In this document: one piece after another, positions 5,062 to 60,623 of the stretch
Layout: each line of letters opens with the position of its first letter
Numbering within the stretch: position 1 is the stretch's first letter
Source: a bacterium
Lineage (GTDB): Bacteria; Patescibacteriota; Saccharimonadia; Saccharimonadales; UBA4665
DNA: 64,000 nt
Reading direction: 5' to 3'
NCBI GenBank assembly: GCA_021846445.1
Contig: JAJZWY010000001.1
Span: 23,379-87,378, forward strand
Made by a program: the position numbers and the translations under genes
Notes under the pieces: generated by a model
Databases searched by the model: none
What the model was told of the DNA's origin: nothing
The model's input: the letters and a program-made list of their open reading frames with translations, nothing else

Positions 5062-6117
5062 ATGAAAAATAATCCTTTTATAAAGACAAACTGGAAATTA
5101 ATTTTAAACATAATTACCATTTTTGCTTTAGTTTTACTGATCTATTTTACTAGGGATCAGATCTTATCTACGATCAAGAATTTAGCCCATATTGATGCTT
5201 GGGCGCTTCTCTTAATTATACCACTCGAAATATTAAATTATCATGCTCAAACTAAATTGTACCAAGGTCTTTTTAGGGTAGTAGGGAACAATTTACCCTA
5301 TAAATATTTATTTAAAATAGCATTGGAACTTAATTTTGTTAACCATGTTTTTCCGAGTGGCGGAGTGACCGGTATATCCTATTTTGGTGTTCGGATTAAA
5401 GATAAAGACCTAATTTCTGGAGGCAAGGCGACTTTAATTCAAATGATGAAATTAATTTTAACTATTTTATCTTTTGAAATTTTATTAGTTATTGGGGTGT
5501 TGAGTCTAGCCATATTCGGAAAAGTTGATGATTTAACTATTTTGGTAGCTGGCGTACTTTCAACCATATTATTTGGGTTAACCATTCTGTTTGTTTACAT
5601 TGTTGGTAGTCAATCAAGAATTGATCATTTCTTTGTATTTATAACTAAATCAATTAATAAACTATCTTATTTCATATTTAGAGGTAAAAAAGAATCAATT
5701 AATATTTTAAGAGTAAAAAAAGTGTTTAGTGATTTCCATGGGAGCTATAAACAGTTGGTTTCTAAAATAAAGGAGCTCAAGAAACCTTTTTATTATGCCC
5801 TACTAACTAATCTGACAGAAATTTTAGTTATTTATGTGGTTTATATTGCTTTTGGAAAATTTATTAATATAGGAGCAATTATTATAGCTTATGGGGTTGC
5901 TAATTTTGCAGGACTTGTCTCATTTTTACCTGGTGGAATAGGGATATACGAAGCTCTGATGACTGTTGTTCTAGCTTCTGCCGGTATCCCACCTCAATTA
6001 AGTCTGCCGGTAACAATAATGTATCGCGTGGTCAATACTGTGCTTCAGTTACCACCAGGCTATTTCTTATATCACAAAAACTTAAATATATCTAAAAAAC
6101 CAGAGATTAATCTATAA
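5062..6117 (+). CDS. UPF0104/lysyl-phosphatidylglycerol-synthase-TM-like (flippase-like) integral membrane protein
   Basis: About 8 predicted TM helices and the C-terminal LPGGIGIYEAL motif typical of this family. Confidence 0.5.
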   Translation: MKNNPFIKTNWKLILNIITIFALVLLIYFTRDQILSTIKNLAHIDAWALLLIIPLEILNYHAQTKLYQGLFRVVGNNLPYKYLFKIALELNFVNHVFPSGGVTGISYFGVRIKDKDLISGGKATLIQMMKLILTILSFEILLVIGVLSLAIFGKVDDLTILVAGVLSTILFGLTILFVYIVGSQSRIDHFFVFITKSINKLSYFIFRGKKESINILRVKKVFSDFHGSYKQLVSKIKELKKPFYYALLTNLTEILVIYVVYIAFGKFINIGAIIIAYGVANFAGLVSFLPGGIGIYEALMTVVLASAGIPPQLSLPVTIMYRVVNTVLQLPPGYFLYHKNLNISKKPEINL

Positions 6118-6121
6118 AAAG

Positions 6122-7219
6122 ATGGAAGATCTTAGTGTAACTGAATTTATAAATTTGTTAAATATTTCCCTAGATAGTTCATTCCATTATGTAAGTATAA
6201 TTGGTGAGATTAGTGAATTTAAGATTCGCAAAAACCAATGGGTCTATTTTAATTTAAAGGATGAAAACAGTACCCTTAATTTTTTTGGATCTATAAATAA
6301 CATAAAGACTGAGTTAATTGACGGGATGCTCGTGAGAGTTGTAGCAAAGCCTAGAATGCATAATAATTTTGGGTTTAGTCTAAATTTTTATTCAATTTCA
6401 CCGTTTGGAGAGGGTAGTATTAAAAAATCACTAGACCTATTAAAGAACAAATTAGAAATGGAGGGTTTATTCGATATTTCTAAAAAGAGGAAATTAGCGT
6501 ACCCTCCTAACAAAATTTGCTTAATTACGTCCACCCAATCAGCCGCTTACGGGGATTTTATGAAAATACTTAAAAACCGCTGGGGTGCAATAAATGTCGA
6601 TGTTATAGATGTTTTGGTGCAAGGTGAAAATGCTAGAAATCAAATTATAAATGCCCTAAATTTTTGCCAAAATCTTAAAGGAATTGAAGTTATAGTTATT
6701 ATAAGGGGAGGGGGAAGCTTGGAGGATTTATCGGTATTTAATGATGAACAATTGACCAGGGTAATTGACAAATCCAAAGTACCAACATTAGTTGCAATAG
6801 GTCATGAAATTGATGTTTGTTTAGCAGAATTAGCAGCTGACATGAGAGCATCAACTCCTAGTAATGCTGCCGAGCAACTAGTTCCCGATAAACAAGATAT
6901 TTTAGAAAAACTAAATAAAAATAGAATACTTTTGGAAAAGAGGGTTAAGGATAATTTAGAGGAATATTTGGAAAGAATATTCCAAAACCAAAAAAAATTA
7001 GATAATGAGATAAAAACTAAGTTTAACTTTTTAGAGCATAGTATTGAAAATAAAAGTATCATCGTGGAAGCTTATAAGCTAGATAATATTTTGGAAAAAG
7101 GTTTTTCTATTGTTCGGAAAAATGGGAAACTTGTTAGGGACGAAAAGGATCTTAGGAATAAAGATATTTTGAATGTTAAATTGTATAAAGGTAATCTAAA
7201 AGTGGAGGTAAAGAAATGA
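6122..7219 (+). CDS. xseA: Exodeoxyribonuclease VII large subunit
   Basis: N-terminal OB fold (VSIIGEISEFKIRKNQWVYFNLKD), IIRGGGSLEDL and GHEIDVCL motifs. The small-subunit gene follows with a 4-nt overlap. Confidence 0.9.
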   Translation: MEDLSVTEFINLLNISLDSSFHYVSIIGEISEFKIRKNQWVYFNLKDENSTLNFFGSINNIKTELIDGMLVRVVAKPRMHNNFGFSLNFYSISPFGEGSIKKSLDLLKNKLEMEGLFDISKKRKLAYPPNKICLITSTQSAAYGDFMKILKNRWGAINVDVIDVLVQGENARNQIINALNFCQNLKGIEVIVIIRGGGSLEDLSVFNDEQLTRVIDKSKVPTLVAIGHEIDVCLAELAADMRASTPSNAAEQLVPDKQDILEKLNKNRILLEKRVKDNLEEYLERIFQNQKKLDNEIKTKFNFLEHSIENKSIIVEAYKLDNILEKGFSIVRKNGKLVRDEKDLRNKDILNVKLYKGNLKVEVKK

Positions 7220-7413
7220 TTTCAAAGAAAAATACTAAAAATTTTAATCAATTAATGGCAGAACTTGATGGAATTATTGTGGATTTGCAATCTAGTGCAA
7301 TAGATGTTGATAAGATGATGATTAAATATAAAAGAGCCACTAAACTAATAAAAGAATTAAAAAAATATATTTCAGAAGCAAAAATTAACGTCAATAAAAT
7401 CAAATTAGATTGA
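7216..7413 (+). CDS. xseB: Exodeoxyribonuclease VII small subunit
   Basis: 65-aa helical protein (FNQLMAELDGIIVDLQS...) translationally coupled (ATGA) to xseA. Confidence 0.8.
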   Translation: MISKKNTKNFNQLMAELDGIIVDLQSSAIDVDKMMIKYKRATKLIKELKKYISEAKINVNKIKLD

Positions 7414-7453
7414 TTGCTTTATTTTTAAGTTATATTCTGATAAATTATAAAAC

Positions 7454-8119
7454 ATGAAACATAACCAAAATGGATCATTGGTTGCCACTATTGCTTTAGT
7501 AGTTTCGGTTTTACTGGTAATTTTGTTTGCCACTCTTTTTATCTGGGCATTTGAAGGTAGGCAAAGTTACAAGAACAACGATCAGATTTTGGTTAATCAG
7601 GCAGTTGCAGGAGCTAAGGCTGAACAATTAAAAACCGATAATGCTAATTTTGCGTTTCAATCTCAATTTCCTCTAGTAACTTATACTGGGCCTTCTCAGT
7701 ATGGTGGTATTACTATTGAATATCCCAAAAATTGGAGTGGATATGTTAGCTCTACGAATGGTAATTATCCAATTGATGGATATTTTAGCCCAGGGATTTT
7801 AACTACTGTCTCTGACTCTAGTATGTTAAATTTTGCTCTAAGATTTAGGATTAATCCTTCTTCGTATGCTAGTCTTTTGCAACAATATGATGGGTTACAA
7901 CAATCAAATTTGGTGAGTATATCCGCTTATTCTTTGCCTAAAGTGCCTTCTGTAGTTGGAGTTAAGATTGTAGGTGAAATGCTGGAGAATGGTCAAAAAC
8001 AGTCAACCGAAATCATCCTTCCTCTTAGAAATGAATCTCTAGAAATATGGACAGAAGGTAGTCAGTTTCTAAATACTTTCAATACCGAGATATTGCCCAA
8101 TATTTCGTTTTCTCCTTAA
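7454..8119 (+). CDS. Hypothetical membrane-anchored protein
   Basis: Single N-terminal TM (LVATIALVVSVLLVILFATLFIWAF) followed by an extracytoplasmic domain. No recognisable motif. Confidence 0.5.
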   Translation: MKHNQNGSLVATIALVVSVLLVILFATLFIWAFEGRQSYKNNDQILVNQAVAGAKAEQLKTDNANFAFQSQFPLVTYTGPSQYGGITIEYPKNWSGYVSSTNGNYPIDGYFSPGILTTVSDSSMLNFALRFRINPSSYASLLQQYDGLQQSNLVSISAYSLPKVPSVVGVKIVGEMLENGQKQSTEIILPLRNESLEIWTEGSQFLNTFNTEILPNISFSP

Positions 8120-8645
8120 TGTTTATAGATAAGTTCAGGGACATATTGAAGTTCTCTAGTTTAAATTAACAGAGAGCTTTAATCAGTGTAACAAAGCTAC
8201 ATAATAGCAAGTTCAAATCAAAATGACTCAAACGAATAATGAACCTGGTGTTTAGCGACGAAATCTCTAATGTTTCTTTGGTTTTCTTAAATGTGTTTTG
8301 TTGGATATTAGCAACAGCCCGTTTGGTGGTAGTAATAAATGTCTGAATATTGTCTAAAACTTCTGTTTTAACGGTAGTGTCAATAACCGAAAAGTTAGAT
8401 ATTTATTCATCTTCTTCTAATTTAACCATAACTGGTTGGCTATGAGTACATTGGGGATATTTTTAATGGTACTATGACAAAGGTTAAAAGTATTGGAATA
8501 ATCAACACTTTTACAGTCTCTTTTAGGAATAAGTTATTTCTCGAAGTAAGTAACTTTAAGTAGTTGACAGACATAATATTGTGGGTTACTTTATAAATAG
8601 ATAAACCCAATATAAAATAAACAAACTTCAATATAAGGAATATAA

Positions 8646-53996: not shown

Positions 53997-54343
53997 ATAA
54001 GTTAAATTGTTTAGGGGATTATTATTTTTTTTGGGAATAGTCTTAATGTCGAATATTTTTTGATAAAGAAAATTTATTAAATGAATATTTAGATGGTTCT
54101 TGACGTTACCTCTTGATAAGTTTGACGATACCAAATGCCTCCTTTTTTATAGCTTATTTTCCTTTGTAAAATAGAGATTCAAATTTTTCCTAAAAAAGCA
54201 ATCATTCTAACCCAGGTCTGGCGGTGTGTATTGGACGAAGTTCGAATGTATTTCGGGCAAAATCCGCAGGATTTTGACGAATGACACTTGCGCCTCGGCC
54301 GCCCAGTGCGCGCACAAGTCCGCCGCTAACGCTGGCGGCTCCC

Positions 54344-56335
54344 TTAACTTCTCCTTTGCGACATTGAATTTAGACTATTGAGATAATTTTTGAACCCCTG
54401 CTTTCCTTGCAGTTGGTTTTTTGCGTGATTACTTTTCTTATAACTAAAGTATTCCGCGTGTTCATCTGATAATTGATCTAGAAAGTCATGCGCTTGTCTC
54501 GCGCCACCGGATTTTAACGCAGTGAGAATGTGTAAACTTTTTCTGGCGCGAGTCATCGCAACATAAAAAGCGTTTTTCGTTACCCAACCCATATTCACAT
54601 TATCAAAACCGATAATAATTACATGATCAGCTGATAATCCTTTTGAACCGACGACTGTCATTAATTCAATGGCTCCCATCTTTTTTACTTCAATTTCTTC
54701 CAATTCTGCCTCCTCTTCTTCTTGATGTTCAATCTCCGTAACTTCCTTTTGGTTAATGGATTTTCTCTTAATATCGTCTTTTAACCGCTTCTTGTCGGAT
54801 AAAGAAATATGTCTAGCAATGCTTTCTATTTTTTGCTCTATTGTTTGCCCGTTTGTTTCTAAAATAGTCTTAATTTCATTAGATTTTTGTACTGCACTTT
54901 TGATTTCGGCGGCATCAAGATCATTAAAGTTTTGATTGTTTTGCATGGCCATCTCAATCAATTCATGCACCCTCGCTATTGCAACGTTTTCGTACTGTAA
55001 AATTTTACGGAAAGTGAAATTGTTTTGTGGGTTATTCGATAGCGAATAATAGCTTAGAATCTTGTGGTAGTCCTCTGAAAAATAGCGATTTTCCGCGCGA
55101 TATTCTGATACAAGCTCGTCTAGTTTCTTTTTCCCGTCAAACTTCTTATTTTTATAAAAATCCACTTCTTTTGCCGGAGTTAAAATGAGCAGAAAAGCGT
55201 CTTTTTCTTCTCCTTCGGTTAATTTTGCCTTTCGTTCATCAATCGCTGCTTTGTTATCCGCCACAAACTTTTCTATGTAATCAACCGCCGTTGGAGCAGT
55301 TGCGCAAGCAATCACTTGTACTTTAGGCTTATCATCAGCCGTTTTTATCGGTAGATAAATTTTTTCTATACACTCTGCTTCTCTATTTTGCTGAATAAAA
55401 TGGCCTGCTGACTTTGTGATATGAAAACTGCTCCGACCGCAGAAAGGTAACATGCCGTTTGCATAATCATTGTTTTGGTAAAGGTTCCGTATCAGAGTTG
55501 GCTTTCCCGATTTTAATTTTTCGTAAAGTACTTGTTCGTCATCGCCAACAATCAATAGCCCTCTGGGGTTATTAACTAGTTGTTTTATTAAATCGTCCTC
55601 GGCGGCATTAAAATCTTGATACTCGTCAATAATAAAGCAGCCACTCTCGTTAAGGTTTGCGTTTTCGGCCAAAGCGTCTTTCGCCCGCAAAATTAAATCA
55701 GCAAAACCAGCCGCATTGTAAAATTGGCACAGCTTAAAGTAGGTATCTTTCAGGCCACGCCATTCATCAGATTCATCAAACTCTGCATTATGCAACTGCT
55801 CCTCAAATTTTTTTAATGTATAAACACTGCGATCTAATCTAGCATAAAAAGCCAAGACATCGACCCACACAACATCTTTCCAAGACTGACCTATGATTCG
55901 GAAGTGTGGCTGAAAACGCCACTCTGTCGTACCATGATTTTGTTCAACGACACTTCGGGCAAATTTATGCAATGTATGAACTTCGACTTGATCTTTTTGT
56001 GCTTGGGTTAAATTTTGATCTCCCTGTATATCGCTGTCTAAATCTGCGACGAGCTTTCGGACAAAGGTGAGGCATAGGATTTTTGATGTTGAATTTTGCC
56101 CTAGCCAAAAACTAATCCTGCCCTTGAATAAGGTGCTTTTGCCCGTTCCGGGGCCAGAAACAATCAAAAACTTTCCCGCTCCGTGATTGGCAATAGCTGA
56201 AGCGTTTTGATTTCGGTATTCGGTACGTCCATTGTCGTCTAACGCATCAAGTTCGCTGTGTAAAGTTTGAAGCTCGTTTGATTCAAATGGGCTACCATCA
56301 TCGTTGATTAGATTTCGCATATTTCTTGGAAGCAT
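54344..56335 (-). CDS. SF1 UvrD-like helicase (AAA_19/UvrD_C-type), no nuclease domain seen
   Basis: Walker A SGPGTGKST, IIDEYQDFN, VGDDEQ and C-terminal SKGLSADHVIIIG...YVAMTRARKSL, with a long charged insert. Confidence 0.8.
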   Translation of the reverse strand: MLPRNMRNLINDDGSPFESNELQTLHSELDALDDNGRTEYRNQNASAIANHGAGKFLIVSGPGTGKSTLFKGRISFWLGQNSTSKILCLTFVRKLVADLDSDIQGDQNLTQAQKDQVEVHTLHKFARSVVEQNHGTTEWRFQPHFRIIGQSWKDVVWVDVLAFYARLDRSVYTLKKFEEQLHNAEFDESDEWRGLKDTYFKLCQFYNAAGFADLILRAKDALAENANLNESGCFIIDEYQDFNAAEDDLIKQLVNNPRGLLIVGDDEQVLYEKLKSGKPTLIRNLYQNNDYANGMLPFCGRSSFHITKSAGHFIQQNREAECIEKIYLPIKTADDKPKVQVIACATAPTAVDYIEKFVADNKAAIDERKAKLTEGEEKDAFLLILTPAKEVDFYKNKKFDGKKKLDELVSEYRAENRYFSEDYHKILSYYSLSNNPQNNFTFRKILQYENVAIARVHELIEMAMQNNQNFNDLDAAEIKSAVQKSNEIKTILETNGQTIEQKIESIARHISLSDKKRLKDDIKRKSINQKEVTEIEHQEEEEAELEEIEVKKMGAIELMTVVGSKGLSADHVIIIGFDNVNMGWVTKNAFYVAMTRARKSLHILTALKSGGARQAHDFLDQLSDEHAEYFSYKKSNHAKNQLQGKQGFKNYLNSLNSMSQRRS

Positions 56336-56352
56336 TCATGCTGTGCGGGCTG

Positions 56353-57522
56353 TTACCGATTACCTTTTGCACGATTGTGGGTTTTGCACAACATTTCACA
56401 ATTCTTTGCCGAAGTAGCACCGCCCTTACTCCATGCTGACACATGGTCGGCTTCCATTTCGCCAAAACTCCAAATTTTTTCCTTGTTAGCATCATGCCCA
56501 ACGGCGCAAAGTGAGCAATTTGATTTCTCTTTAGCTTCTGCTTCTTTAGTTTGTTTTGCGTAAACGGATCGTTTGGTCGCCTCATCAAAAACTCGAACAT
56601 CTAGCAATTTCGTGTCTTTTTCTCCACCAAGAATGTATTCAAAAATACCTCTGCGATTCTTGATATACGGGTCGCCATAGAGCTTATGTACCTCGGCTGA
56701 TATTTTGGCTGGGTTATATGATTTTTTGTGATACTCCTCATAAAGTCGTCCCCATTCAAGCCCGCGCATTTCGCTTTCTACGTCAGTAAATACGCTAGAT
56801 ACCCAGTCAATGACTGTGTTGAAATATTTTTTCAACTCATCAATGTTTTTGTCCTTACGATGTTTACTCATGTAATCGCCAATATTGCCCTTGCTTACCC
56901 AATCAAGAGCGCATTCCAAAAATTCCTGTCGGTTCGCACTGCCTGAAACATATGCACTCCATTTTTGAATGTTGGCGTTTTGGCTATTACTAAATTCTTC
57001 TTTGGCCTTAGTTACGAATGGACCAGAATACACAGCGTTGAGTAATTCCTGATTATTTAACGGAACACCTGCAATATTTATAGTCTTGAACCACTCTTTT
57101 ATTTGGCTCTCTGTGCCTTCGCACTCATAAATGAGTAGTTTCGTTTCCAAAATCTTGGTTTGTTTGTCTTTCGCCATACCGCCAAAGTATTGCTCCATGC
57201 CATTTTCGTCTTTAATGGCAAATTTGTCAGTGATAAATCGTCCAAGACTGGTGATGCGCTGTTGTCCGTCTAAAACTTCTAGGTTGTCGGCTGAAACTTT
57301 ATTGAAGTAGATCAATCCGATTGGGTATCCTTTGAGGACTGATTCGATAACGGTCATTTCTCTTTTACCGCCGTCAGACGCATAAATATAATTTCGTTGA
57401 TACTCTGGTTGAATAGTGAGCTTGCCAGACAAGCCAAACAAACCCTTGCCTTCAAGTTCGTTATAGACAAACCCATCACAGATTTCTTGAACAGTTATAC
57501 TGGTTTTTAGAATTGTTTTCAT
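56353..57522 (-). CDS. DUF262 (ParB-like NTPase) protein fused to a C-terminal HNH nuclease
   Basis: [14 protein letters not shown] (DGQQR motif) and C-terminal CSLC...[12 protein letters not shown]...[14 protein letters not shown] (HNH). The start was moved to ATG 57522, which is 1 nt after the MTase TGA and is preceded by AGGA. Confidence 0.8.
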
Positions 57523-57523
57523 A

Positions 57524-58633
57524 TCATTTTTTCCTGTGTTTAATAAATAACCTTTTGTAGACTTCTTTCCCATTCAAATAAGAACCTTTGCCGTATATTT
57601 TATTCGGGTCTTGGTCTACTCCACGATTTGAGCCTAAAATTTCAAATTGATCTGGGTTGTAATTATCTAAAAAACTAACTGGTACGCCCATCATACCCTT
57701 GTAATCACTTGGTATGTTTTTGACCAACGAAACCTCTATCGCATTATAGTTATCGTATTTCTCAAAAGGTTTTTTCGTTGTGAACTTTATCACTTCTTTT
57801 TCGGTCATGAGTTGAAGCGGTTCGTGACGGCGGCCATGATCGATATTTGTAAACCAACGAATGCCTTGTACTCGTGTTATATAAACTTTCTTTCCACTTT
57901 CGTTAGTCTTTACCTCGCGCACCTGTTCCAAATTGGCAATTTTTTCTGGTATCTCAAAAAACATCGCACCAGCATTGACCTTGTAGTTATTGCCCAACCA
58001 AACTTTGTTATCTCTAAGCAATGGAAATACTTCTTTGTAGGTAATTGCGTTCATGTTGCCAATAATCAAAAACTTTTTACCAAAATCAACAAGTTGTTTT
58101 ATGTACTCACGGAAAAGACTAAATGGAGGATTGGTTACCACAATGTCAGATTGTTTGAGTAGGTCAACGGACTCCTCGCTACGAAAATCACCATCGCCTT
58201 CGAGCGGTGTCCATTCGTTGTGTTTGTTTGTTCTTAACTGCTTGGCAACGTCTTTAAGATTAAACTCGCCATCGCCGTCTACGTCTTTTACTTTATTGAT
58301 AATAAATTTGTTGGCGGTTATTTTTGGACGACCCTTTACCTTCGTGATGGTTTTATCATCGCCAAATAATTGTAGTTGCGTGTTTGCGACAGGCGATGGC
58401 TTGTAGCTCGTCGTTATGAGTCGTTTTAATCTAAGTTTATTGAAATTTAGAACGAAATAACGAAAGAAATTGCTTTCAAACGGATCGTCGCAGTTGCAAT
58501 ACACCACTTTGCCTCGGAATACATTAGGGTCGTATTCCAAATACGCCTCAATTTCTTTTTGAATATCGCTATATTGAGTATAAAACTCGTCGTTTTTTAC
58601 CTTTTTTGCGTTTGTAAGAAATTCGTTCGCCAT
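57524..58633 (-). CDS. N6-adenine DNA methyltransferase, EcoRI-methylase-like family
   Basis: Motif [10 protein letters not shown], plus N-terminal KNDEFYTQ and [12 protein letters not shown] regions typical of this family. Confidence 0.75.
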
Positions 58634-58635
58634 AG

Positions 58636-58848
58636 TTATTTCAAAAGCTCGTCGCTTGATACTCCCAACGCTTGGGCTATTTTTTCAATGGTGGCAAGCG
58701 TAGGATTGCCTTTGCCCGCTTCAATATTGCTCATTTGAGCACGGTCAAGCCCGACCGCGCGACAAATGTCGCCTTGCGACATTTCCTTTTGCTCGCGTAT
58801 ACGCTTGATGTTTTTACCAAGTTTGGATGTTGGGGTTTTCATATTCAC
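58636..58848 (-). CDS. XRE-family HTH regulator in controller (C-protein) position
   Basis: 70 aa. LGKNIKRIREQKEMSQGDICRAVGLDRAQMSNIEAGKGNPTLATIEKIAQALGV is a canonical Cro/C1 HTH. It lies 2 nt upstream of the MTase gene. Confidence 0.8.
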   Translation of the reverse strand: MNMKTPTSKLGKNIKRIREQKEMSQGDICRAVGLDRAQMSNIEAGKGNPTLATIEKIAQALGVSSDELLK

Positions 58849-58969
58849 AGATGTATTCTAGCAAAATATTGTGTTGTATGACAATAATGTGATATATTAC
58901 AAGTATGTTGAATTTGAAGCGGCGGCAGCAAAACCAAAAATTTCCTTCCTTTCAAATTTTCCGCTTCGC

Positions 58970-58993
58970 GGCGGAGAGAGTGGGATTCGAACC
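58970..58993 (-). repeat. Partial duplicate of the tRNA-Ser(GGA) 3' end (att-like direct repeat)
   Basis: ggcggagagagTgggattcgaacc versus 60534-60557 ggcggagagagAgggattcgaacc. 23 of 24 nt are identical in the same orientation. Confidence 0.8.
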
Positions 58994-59046
58994 AATAATT
59001 ACATGCATCACTTTAACTACCATACAATTAAATTAATGGGGATATG

Positions 59047-59075
59047 TTGACAATAATGTCGCAGTTTGATACTAT
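59047..59075 (+). promoter_or_regulatory. Putative abiE promoter
   Basis: TTGACA (59047-59052), a 17-nt spacer, then TACTAT (59070-59075), ending 21 nt upstream of the abiEi ATG. Confidence 0.45.
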
Positions 59076-59096
59076 ATACAGTAGGAAAACTACCCT

Positions 59097-59681
59097 ATGC
59101 GTAACCAAACCAATATAGAAAAACTGATCACCAGTGGTAAAAAAGTTTTTACGACAGATGATCTAGCTGTCATTTGGGAAATTTCTGATAGAAAAAAACT
59201 TATAGGGCGCATTAAACACTATTTAAGACAACAAAGGCTTATACATGTCTATAAAGGCATTTACGCCTACGGAGACTACTCGGCCATGGATGTTGCCCAA
59301 AAGTTGGTACCTATGTCCTACATATCACTGTACACCTCGAGCCAGATACATGGTCTGACATTTCAATATTATCCAACTATATTTTGCATCTCACTCAAAA
59401 GCAAAAAATATGATATAGATGACCAAACTTATGAGTACCACAAAGTAAAAGAGGCTATATTCTTCAATAGTATGGGCTTAACCGAGGAAAATGGTTATAT
59501 TCTCTCAAATAAAGAACGCACCGTCTGCGATCTTCTGTACGTATTCCCTCATTTTGCTTTCGATAACTTGAGGGGTATAGATACAAATAAGCTCCGAGAG
59601 ATCTCCTATATTTACGAGAATAAACGGCTGGAGAATGATGTTTCTAAACTGATTAATATCATTGAAAGCGAGAATGAATAA
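59097..59681 (+). CDS. abiEi: AbiEi-family antitoxin/transcriptional regulator (type IV TA)
   Basis: About 190 aa with a winged-helix-like N-terminus (FTTDDLAVIW). It overlaps the downstream AbiEii-type nucleotidyltransferase gene, which is the canonical arrangement. Confidence 0.65.
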   Translation: MRNQTNIEKLITSGKKVFTTDDLAVIWEISDRKKLIGRIKHYLRQQRLIHVYKGIYAYGDYSAMDVAQKLVPMSYISLYTSSQIHGLTFQYYPTIFCISLKSKKYDIDDQTYEYHKVKEAIFFNSMGLTEENGYILSNKERTVCDLLYVFPHFAFDNLRGIDTNKLREISYIYENKRLENDVSKLINIIESENE

Positions 59682-60360
59682 AATGATAAACAGACAAAAG
59701 CATGAACAAATACTAAAAAGTATCTTGCGAGATATCTACACTAACCCAAGTCTCCAAGCTTCATTAGCTTTCAATGGAGGTACTTGTTTATATATATTTT
59801 ATGGGCTGGACAGATTCTCTGTGGATCTAGACTTTAATTTACGCTCCGATAAATTTGACTCAGACAAGCTCAATGGGATTATTCAAAAATATATCCAAGT
59901 AACAGACAGGTCTAACAAGCATTACACTTGGTTTTGGCTAGGTGGCTATGAAAAGACTCTCCAGAAAATAAAAGTTGAGGTGAGTAAAAGAGATTTTCCT
60001 GACAGATATATAAACAAAGACTTTTACGGATTGACCGTCTCTATATTGGAATCTAGTTGTATGTTTGCCCATAAATTATGTGCAATTACAGATAGAAAGA
60101 AAATACAAAACAGGGATCTATATGATGCTCACTTTATGTTCAATAAACAGTTTGACATTAATGAAGAGATTATTAAGTTACGAACCGGAAAAACGACTAA
60201 GGAGTATTTTAAAGAGTTAGTAACGTTTCTGGAAAAAGAGGTTACTGACAACAATATACTTGAAGGTCTTGGTGAACTATTGAGTGAACAGCAAAAGAAA
60301 AGTGTTCGTGCAACACTGAAAAGAGATCTTTTGTTTGATCTAAAAAGCCGACTCTATTAA
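59674..60360 (+). CDS. abiEii: AbiEii/AbiGii-family nucleotidyltransferase toxin (DUF1814)
   Basis: LAFNGGTCLYIFYGLDRFSVDLDFNL matches the F.GGT.L...RFS.DLDF core. ATG 59674 overlaps the abiEi stop (ATGAATAA). The ORF track opens at TTG 59662. Confidence 0.78.
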   Translation: MNKMINRQKHEQILKSILRDIYTNPSLQASLAFNGGTCLYIFYGLDRFSVDLDFNLRSDKFDSDKLNGIIQKYIQVTDRSNKHYTWFWLGGYEKTLQKIKVEVSKRDFPDRYINKDFYGLTVSILESSCMFAHKLCAITDRKKIQNRDLYDAHFMFNKQFDINEEIIKLRTGKTTKEYFKELVTFLEKEVTDNNILEGLGELLSEQQKKSVRATLKRDLLFDLKSRLY

Positions 60361-60444
60361 CTTAACTAGTAAAAATTCCAAAGCTTTGGGCTTTTCAGGG
60401 CTAAATTCGCAGTTCCAGACCAAGGTGGGGTTAGCTAAAAAAGT

Positions 60445-60472
60445 AAGCTCTTGAGACAAAAAGAGAGCTTTT
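60445..60472 (+). terminator. Possible intrinsic terminator after abiEii
   Basis: AAGCTCTT, a 10-nt loop, then GAGAGCTT followed by TT; 8 bp including one G-U pair. Confidence 0.35.
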
Positions 60473-60532
60473 GACAAGCTTTTTCTACCTATTTCATAGT
60501 CTTGACTTCTGTAAAAAGTTCCATAATCTATC

Positions 60533-60623
60533 TGGCGGAGAGAGAGGGATTCGAACCCTCGAGAGTCGTAAAACTCTACACGCTTTCCAAGCGTGCGCCA
60601 TAGGCCAACTAGGCGACCTCTCC
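60533..60623 (-). tRNA. tRNA-Ser (anticodon GGA), type II, CCA encoded
   Basis: The reverse complement folds with acceptor GGAGAGG/TCTCTCC, anticodon stem CACGC/GCGTG with loop TTGGAAA, an 18-nt variable arm, and T-arm GAGGG-TTCGAAT-CCCTC. Confidence 0.9.

Follow-up and report, generated by a model that had tools for sequence, protein, structure and literature searches.

A probable mobile, controller-headed Type II-like restriction–modification operon with a DUF262–HNH nuclease and an accessory helicase gene in a Saccharimonadales genome

Does an operon that unites a small regulator, a DNA methyltransferase, a nuclease and a helicase encode a new defence machine, or a known one to which a gene has been added? 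The question is raised by four consecutive minus-strand open reading frames (ORFs) at 54344–58848 of a 64,000-nt stretch from a Saccharimonadales bacterium of the lineage UBA4665 (Patescibacteriota; assembly GCA_021846445.1, contig JAJZWY010000001.1, positions 23,379 to 87,378). This whole stretch is called the window, and positions refer to it unless another locus is named. A sequence-only reading of the window had suggested for the four genes a methylation-protected, NTP- or helicase-assisted, restriction-like system that it could not map onto Types I–IV of restriction–modification (R-M). The present analysis points elsewhere. The locus is probably a mobile, C-protein-controlled Type II-like R-M operon whose 3′ end carries a helicase gene as a separate accessory. 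Its core is of a kind already known among defence systems and not a new class, and the link of the helicase with R-M is a modest new lead.

Three of the four products fall within a named scheme. A PADLOC scan, covering the four cassette proteins and two neighbours (54.3–60.4 kb), assigns the controller (C), the methylase (M) and the nuclease (R) to the models Control_protein (4e-16), MTase_II (PDLC03297, 1.3e-107) and REase_II (PDLC03418, 1.1e-82), the last over its full length (model positions 6–371 of 372). The C-M-R part can thus be mapped after all, and a named system is available for three genes; the helicase gives partial matches only, the best being RTasHel (2.7e-27). Features of Type II R-M are the Type II-family methylase and the adjacent REase_II-model nuclease, encoded 1 nt behind the methylase gene. 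Those of controller-regulated R-M are a small helix-turn-helix (HTH) gene heading the operon and, at the promoter, a candidate dyad operator recognized by its sequence.

Profile hidden Markov models uphold every domain call made earlier for the four proteins. The methylase, described as an N6-adenine methyltransferase, matches Pfam EcoRI_methylase (8.4e-124) and carries the motif NPPF at residue 168. In the nuclease, GmrSD_N (DUF262; 2.5e-20) is fused to a classical HNH domain (PF01844; 2.5e-6); DUF1524 is not found in the Pfam scan of this protein, and a zinc-ribbon HNH with CxxC...C..C stands in its place. With the GmrSD family the nuclease shares the N-terminal DUF262 but not DUF1524, and an EcoRI-family methylase lies upstream in nearly all loci. 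The 663-aa product of the last gene is, as had been stated, a superfamily 1 (SF1) UvrD-like helicase (Pfam UvrD-helicase 6.1e-27, and UvrD_C), in which the Pfam scan finds no nuclease, HUH/Rep or relaxase domain.

The description of the four genes (Table 1) as one foreign operon stands. Spacers between successive genes measure 2, 1 and 17 nt, and a single promoter-like site, upstream of the controller gene, is the best-scoring and only good one on the coding strand. On that strand, neither a promoter-like nor a terminator-like site is found between the nuclease and helicase genes. The ORF of the third gene reaches 57573 mechanically; nearly all nuclease homologues start at an internal Met, which is the start used here. 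Helicase homologues are mostly 654–658 aa, so that its start may be the Met at 56320. The G+C content of 54200–58970 is 39.8%, versus 32.5% in 248 same-size windows elsewhere in the stretch (standard deviation 1.7%, maximum 36.7%). The contrast in composition noted earlier is confirmed, although one line cited for it, with 39 G+C in 60 nt at 54301, belongs to a non-coding 3′ end of 57% G+C and not to a gene. The cassette stays at ∼40% G+C even in hosts with flanks of 53–64% G+C; ‘GC-rich’ applies relative to this host only. A structured RNA in the 3′ flank finds no support, its folding energy being no better than that of shuffled sequence (z = 0.68).

Table 1. Features of the cassette and its ends in the window
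Feature	Coordinates	Strand	Remarks
Controller gene	58636–58848	minus	70 aa; ATG at 58842 gives the 68-aa form as called in other assemblies
EcoRI-family N6-adenine methyltransferase gene	57524–58633	minus	369 aa
DUF262–HNH nuclease gene	56353–57522	minus	389 aa
SF1 UvrD/GajB-like helicase gene	54344–56335	minus	663 aa; accessory
Whole mobile cassette including end sequences	54219–58984	minus	4,766-nt block shared with locus L011; G+C as in text
Sigma-70-like promoter TTGTCA-18-TAGAAT, predicted	58855–58884	minus	10/12 matches plus TG extension
Candidate C-box dyad TATTGT-N8-ACAATA	58867–58886	minus	overlaps −35 hexamer
G+C-rich right end (terminal repeat sequence)	54219–54302	unassigned	matches L011 inverted repeats
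24-nt copy of tRNA-Ser 3′ end, left cassette junction	58970–58993	minus	direct repeat of 60534–60557, 96% identity
∼95-nt imperfect palindrome, one arm only	58915–58984		elsewhere: L011 5500–5593; L114 3286–3373; L092 5153–5261; L099 5085–5189

The first gene encodes an XRE-type HTH protein of 68–70 aa (Pfam HTH_3 2.9e-15), and its proposed place as an R-M controller agrees with the PADLOC match and with conservation of the promoter dyad. This dyad (read from 58886 to 58867) is a candidate operator, or C-box, of the controller. It is kept upstream of homologous HTH genes in loci L012, L092 and L099, and L058 and L041, which are more divergent, have related dyads of the form ATTGT/ACAAT. The controller is 94–99% identical in L092, L099 and L114, even where methylase and nuclease diverge.

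The nuclease comprises a ParB/DUF262 NTPase-like domain, a helical middle domain and the zinc-ribbon HNH, with DGQQR at residue 85, DH at 359 and HN at 382. The motifs QR, DGQQR and FxxxN define the ParB/DUF262 nucleotide-binding centre (PMC12065111). Together with CxxC, DH, N and C..C, they are invariant in two nuclease clades only 38–43% identical, as are the HNH residues C336, C339, D359, H360, N374, C375, C379 and N383. The second clade, of 369 aa and 38% identical to the window nuclease, is conserved at 83–94% across Patescibacteria, Deltaproteobacteria and Bacteroidota. Since the DGQQR motif, which binds nucleoside triphosphates (NTPs), is intact, the enzyme may need NTP. A first AlphaFold run with 20 near-identical sequences was unusable (mean predicted local distance difference test score, pLDDT, 37); a second, with the 369-aa clade added, reached a mean pLDDT of 72. 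The best fold matches of the resulting model are BrxU (7p9k, E = 2.8e-3), ParB CTPases, the Gme HNH nicking enzyme (4h9d) and EcoKMcrA. These matches are individually weak, yet they agree with the Pfam result. A specificity-determining segment was sought and dismissed, inter-clade differences being spread evenly along the protein. Neither the methylase nor the nuclease is represented by an NCBIfam model, and a literature search retrieved no paper in which a DUF262–HNH enzyme has an EcoRI-family methylase as its partner. A survey of DUF262 systems published in 2025 covers GmrSD, SspE, PD-T4-2, Dazbog and Menshen, and this system is absent from it (PMC12065111).

The methylase–nuclease pair is an extremely widespread, tightly coupled mobile module. 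Relatives occur in at least 583 species in a scan of one genome per species, and 446 matches at E<=1e-30 are found among representatives of 50%-identity clusters. The best 80 species-level nuclease loci (L011–L090) are 81–100% identical over the full length and belong to many Patescibacteria lineages, Gammaproteobacteria, Omnitrophota, Chloroflexota, Bacteroidota, Bacillota and others. In nearly all related loci, a gene for a homologue of the EcoRI-family methylase stands directly upstream, and the proposed coupling of the nuclease to its own methyltransferase and controller is upheld. Of 60 evaluable loci, 44 have the nuclease start at −4 to +13 nt from the methylase stop. Plasmid copies of the pair are found on Enterococcus faecium megaplasmids, small Moraxella and Apilactobacillus plasmids and an Arthrobacter plasmid, and a phage copy in Flavobacterium phage laban6-1; the methylase is directly upstream in every plasmid or phage record inspected. 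Within L011–L090, mean pairwise identity is 83% for the nuclease (minimum 75%, almost no indels) and 67% for the methylase (minimum 46%, many indels), the latter being most variable at residues 201–260 and 341–360. Distances of the two proteins correlate weakly (Spearman 0.18). The nuclease is the better conserved of the two, whereas R-M systems usually show the opposite.

Some single loci of these families have their own surroundings. In a candidate division Kazan genome (L004–L006, 5405–6754), the pair occurs without a controller gene and adjoins a serine recombinase with Resolvase/Recombinase domains. The L069 nuclease gene lies between genes for menaquinone synthesis and follows a RhuM gene; in L025, the nuclease gene is preceded by an AAA_21 ATPase gene and a 190-aa ORF. 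In Cyclobacteriaceae, the records suggest that the clade-B nuclease P0501 and the helicase homologue P0161 may share one 4,703-nt contig.

The four-gene order C-M-R-helicase recurs in at least four unrelated genomes (L099, L114, L091/92 and L011), in chromosomal surroundings that are unrelated as well, a point raised by the sequence-only reading. Identities to the window for HTH protein, methylase, nuclease and helicase are 99, 65, 82 and 86% in L099, 96, 72, 93 and 85% in L114, and 94, 48, 38 and 85% in L091/92. The cassettes are mosaics, in which controllers (91–95% nucleotide identity) and helicases (83–85%) surround methylase–nuclease cores at 62–80%. In L011, the block at 5539–10304 equals the window block (54219–58984) at 99.7% nucleotide identity, and its flanks are not homologous to the window. 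The L011 cassette is bounded by 89-nt inverted repeats, 99% complementary (5388–5476 and 10221–10309). A 5-bp AATTT sequence may be a target duplication, and the cassette itself encodes neither a transposase nor an integrase. The 89-nt repeats are taken as real, because they are internal to an 89.5-kb contig. A 105-nt perfect inverted repeat in L099 was set aside, one arm lying at the very start of a metagenome contig and possibly being an assembly artefact. The window keeps the right-hand repeat copy only; L011 homology stops at the same base, ...CACACCGCCA, and the end of the cassette reads ...CCAATACACACCGCCA. By its sequence, the L011 cassette resembles a non-autonomous transposon, and comparison of the copies indicates that the cassette moves as one unit by horizontal transfer.

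Near the cassette ends, an imperfect palindrome of ∼95 nt lies upstream of the controller in some loci and, inverted, downstream of the helicase in others. To the left of the cassette, an AbiEi/AbiEii toxin–antitoxin pair is encoded on the plus strand at 59097–60360 (PADLOC AbiEi 1e-39, AbiEii 9e-55), followed by tRNA-Ser(gga) at 60533–60623. As the AbiE pair stands between this tRNA gene and the 24-nt copy of its 3′ end, it is read as a separate tRNA-targeted islet beside the R-M cassette. No integrase is seen among the ORFs listed for 58970–60623.

The helicase has another distribution. Helicase motifs I, II, III, V and VI are all preserved, without variation across the family, and the Walker A sequence GPGTGKS lies at residue 61. 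Scores lie far below the NCBIfam equivalog cut-offs for PcrA, UvrD and Rep, so that it is not a housekeeping orthologue; GajB models match at 1e-17 to 2.4e-25, mostly over parts of the protein. Homologues with 65–89% identity occur across phyla. Only one of the 80 species-level nuclease loci contains the helicase, namely L011, which bears the window's own cassette; the helicase is therefore not a core component. Of 17 contexts that could be evaluated, 10 have the helicase gene at the end of an R-M operon, where it shares the strand of the preceding gene at a spacing of −4 to +37 nt. These contexts are the C-M-R type (four versions, two nuclease clades), a Dam-type MTase_II with an uncharacterised 382-aa protein (one), Type I-like systems with fused M-S (two), a Type IIG enzyme with an HKD-SNF2 protein (two) and a Type IIG-like methylase (one). 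In L097 and L110, the helicase gene overlaps the preceding R-M gene by 4 nt. In the remaining 7 of 17, it is alone or beside ImmA/DUF4411, Abi_C or a housekeeping UvrD. The family is not found on plasmids (tblastn, E<=1e-30) or in the scan of viral contigs; a metagenome scan gave 8 loci, the peptide patterns used having been too common. Given the recurrence, the mosaic structure and the transfer of the four-gene cassette described above, the link of the helicase to R-M is still more than chance. Two further traits of the family match no Pfam domain: an invariant N-terminal segment (residues 1–40; N11, G14, P16, F17 and others) and a conserved acidic run, E536–E549 (EEEEAELEEIE).

Elsewhere, the place behind the nuclease is taken by other genes. 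They include genes for an AAA_13/PDC-S06 ATPase, OLD-family nucleases, a HerA-like ATPase, SIR2, a RelA/SpoT-like PDC-S33 protein, a 907-aa PDC-S53 helicase, PDC-S39, DUF2806, a trypsin-like protease and DUF2130. Moreover, 15–21 loci carry 0.6–2.9 kb of same-strand cargo between methylase and nuclease, including RhuM, T5orf172, DUF2130, Fic, an OLD-like ATPase, HATPase_c_3, PIN_8 and a Dam-type methylase. This variable cargo is the ‘embedded defence gene’ pattern, here inside a two-gene Type II module. In the part of the study available, such embedding is analysed for Hma, BREX, DISARM and Type I R-M (bioRxiv 10.1101/2024.01.29.577857).

The following course of events can be proposed. The C protein would bind the dyad over its own promoter and delay nuclease expression after transfer, while the EcoRI-family enzyme would mark host DNA with N6-methyladenine (m6A). 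The nuclease would bind unmethylated sites through its ParB/DUF262 and helical domains, and its HNH domain would nick or cut the unmethylated DNA. From knowledge of the family, we infer an NTP-switched enzyme in the manner of GmrSD, BrxU and SspE, probably with NTP binding or hydrolysis as the switch. Being paired with its own methylase, the nuclease is presumably blocked by, and not dependent on, modification. The helicase would be dispensable for the core reaction, as co-transcribed cargo. It would most readily be an independent defence gene and, as a second choice, would act on nicks or ends made by restriction.

A four-component ‘helicase-assisted restriction’ machine, as first proposed from the locus, is possible although rather unlikely. 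There, the HNH domain would nick unmethylated DNA and the helicase would load at the nick or end, to unwind the invader or, like GajB, to sense termini and burn nucleotides. The 17-nt spacer without internal promoter or terminator fits this scheme, as do the recurrence of the cassette in at least four genomes and its movement as a unit, the presence of the same helicase, at 85% identity, behind two nuclease clades only 38% identical to each other, and its overlap or abutment with the last gene of other R-M operons. Precedents exist as well. GajB is described as a sensor of the termini produced by GajA nicking (10.1101/2023.05.02.539174), and SspE, a DUF262 enzyme, is described as a nickase (PMC9646914). 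Looser analogues are CglI and NgoAVII, R-M systems in which the nuclease relies on a helicase-like ATPase that is a separate protein (PMC4267653, PMC5861437). On the opposite side, 79 of 80 species-level loci do without the helicase, so the nuclease can evidently work in its absence; in 7 of 17 contexts the helicase is alone or beside non-R-M genes; many unrelated defence genes fill the same slot; and the PADLOC GajB matches are partial only. Of the machine originally envisaged, the coupling of the nuclease to methylase and controller is retained. The helicase part is less secure, this gene being optional, present behind at least five other kinds of R-M, or alone.

Two other explanations fare worse than the C-protein-controlled operon with accessory cargo. 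It is very unlikely that the methyl mark acts as a licence, in an SspE-like logic where DUF262 senses host m6A and activates nicking of invading DNA. The DUF262 domains of GmrSD and SspE do sense modified DNA (PMC12065111), SspE is described as dependent on its host's own modification (PMC9646914), and both the greater conservation of the nuclease (83% versus 67%, Spearman 0.18) and two loci with a nuclease and no nearby methylase would suit this logic. Nevertheless, the operon is headed by a C protein and has a conserved operator-like dyad, which is how a toxic nuclease is classically delayed, methylase and nuclease show translational coupling, plasmids and a phage carry the strict pair, and the nuclease matches a Type II REase model. 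Least probable of all is a helicase serving the transfer, repair or maintenance of the mobile cassette and not defence. Such a service would accord with the 89-nt inverted repeats of L011, its possible 5-bp duplication and its lack of a transposase or integrase, and with C and helicase forming a conserved frame around exchangeable cores. It is opposed by the absence of an HUH/Rep, relaxase or nuclease domain from the helicase, by the absence of the family from plasmids (E<=1e-30) and viral contigs, and by its attachment to many operons that do not share these end sequences.

Several results weigh against the preferred explanation, that of a Type II-like operon with an accessory helicase gene. 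Sequence searches of the PDB return no relative for the nuclease, with the single sequence or with a profile; the same holds for the methylase. Palindrome avoidance in 59 kb of host DNA yields no nameable recognition site: the lowest 4-mer is CATG (observed/expected 0.71), and 6-mer counts are too small. A literature search finds no biochemical or genetic work on this nuclease family. The seed enzymes of the PADLOC REase_II model may be characterised or only predicted REBASE entries; the PADLOC papers, in the parts available, do no more than cite REBASE. In L025 (7001–8170) and L069 (4454–5623), the nuclease has no EcoRI-type methylase within 7 kb upstream, as one would not expect of a classical restriction enzyme; the methylase gene may be at another place in these genomes, or these could be orphan nucleases. 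Finally, all four contexts of the closest helicases (>=85% identity) have the C-M-R layout, and the conservation of C and helicase around divergent cores could mean a link tighter than ‘cargo’.

A broader proposal sees in this SF1 helicase family of ∼650 aa a portable accessory that serves restriction systems in general, placed on the 3′ ends of Type I, II and IIG operons and acting on nicks or ends made by any restriction nuclease, either by unwinding or by Gabija-like end-sensing and nucleotide depletion, with an NTP-switched, methylation-blocked DUF262–HNH enzyme as its partner here. This is speculative and, on balance, doubtful. If true, the helicase would be a modular second stage of restriction, and the DUF262–HNH enzyme would differ mechanistically from classical Type II enzymes. 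The family, which occurs behind restriction operons of many kinds, is a testable candidate helper of restriction in general. If the core works as proposed above, a very widespread family of restriction enzymes uses a ParB-like NTPase module. The methylase–nuclease pair is in addition a natural ‘cargo rack’, with which searches for guilt by embedding can be widened to two-gene Type II systems. The findings do not overturn current classification; worth following are the biochemistry of the nuclease, the attachment of the helicase to R-M operons and the pair as a rack for defence cargo.

Comparison with known systems places the operon closest to C-protein-controlled Type II R-M, of which PvuII and Esp1396I are examples. 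Shared traits are the order C, M, R, the XRE-type HTH, the promoter-overlapping dyad, an m6A methylase with a nuclease, and carriage on plasmids, phages and islands. The differences lie in the nuclease, which is neither PD-(D/E)XK nor a simple HNH enzyme and bears a ParB/DUF262 NTPase-like domain, and in the appended helicase gene. With GmrSD, BrxU and SspE, the nuclease shares the N-terminal DUF262 (QR, DGQQR, FxxxN), the helical middle and a C-terminal His-Me finger nuclease (PMC4619093, PMC12065111), and BrxU is the best, although weak, fold match of its model. Unlike them, it ends in a zinc-ribbon HNH and not DUF1524, and at 389 aa it is much shorter. Menshen NsnA and PD-T4-2_A, which have DUF262 without DUF1524, align over the DUF262 and helical domains (7.8e-27 and 6.4e-15); here, in place of the NsnB ABC ATPase and NsnC effector, there are a fused HNH and a methylase partner.

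For the helicase, the nearest parallels are of another kind. CglI and NgoAVII likewise combine in one operon a methylase, a nuclease and a separate helicase-family ATPase (PMC4267653, PMC5861437). However, their ATPase is an SF2 DEAD-Z1 protein, obligatory and always present, and their nuclease a PLD plus B3 protein, whereas the helicase here is SF1 UvrD-like and absent from most copies, and the nuclease is of the DUF262–HNH type. In Gabija, an SF1 UvrD-like helicase adjoins a nicking or cutting nuclease, and GajB matches reach 2.4e-25; these matches are partial, and the partner here is an R-M operon. No real match to GajA/OLD occurs among the six proteins scanned (54.3–60.4 kb), the sole GajA line (0.0098) falling on AbiEii. 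In the same PADLOC scan, signature proteins were not found for BREX (PglZ/BrxC), DISARM (DrmA/DrmB), Dnd-Ssp (DndACDE or SspABCD), MADS (the mad1-8 set) or Menshen (NsnB/NsnC). There are marginal lines only for mad1 (0.0014) and mad8 (0.0011), and the NsnA-like match is confined to the DUF262 part.

As a whole, the module recalls cases of a defence gene embedded in another defence operon, such as PrrC in Type I R-M, and the guilt-by-embedding approach (bioRxiv 10.1101/2024.01.29.577857): an R-M operon has defence-type genes of varying kind inside it or attached to it. Several of its cargo genes are themselves PADLOC PDC candidates from that approach. Unlike the hosts listed above for that study, it is a two-gene Type II module, and it accepts cargo even between methylase and nuclease.

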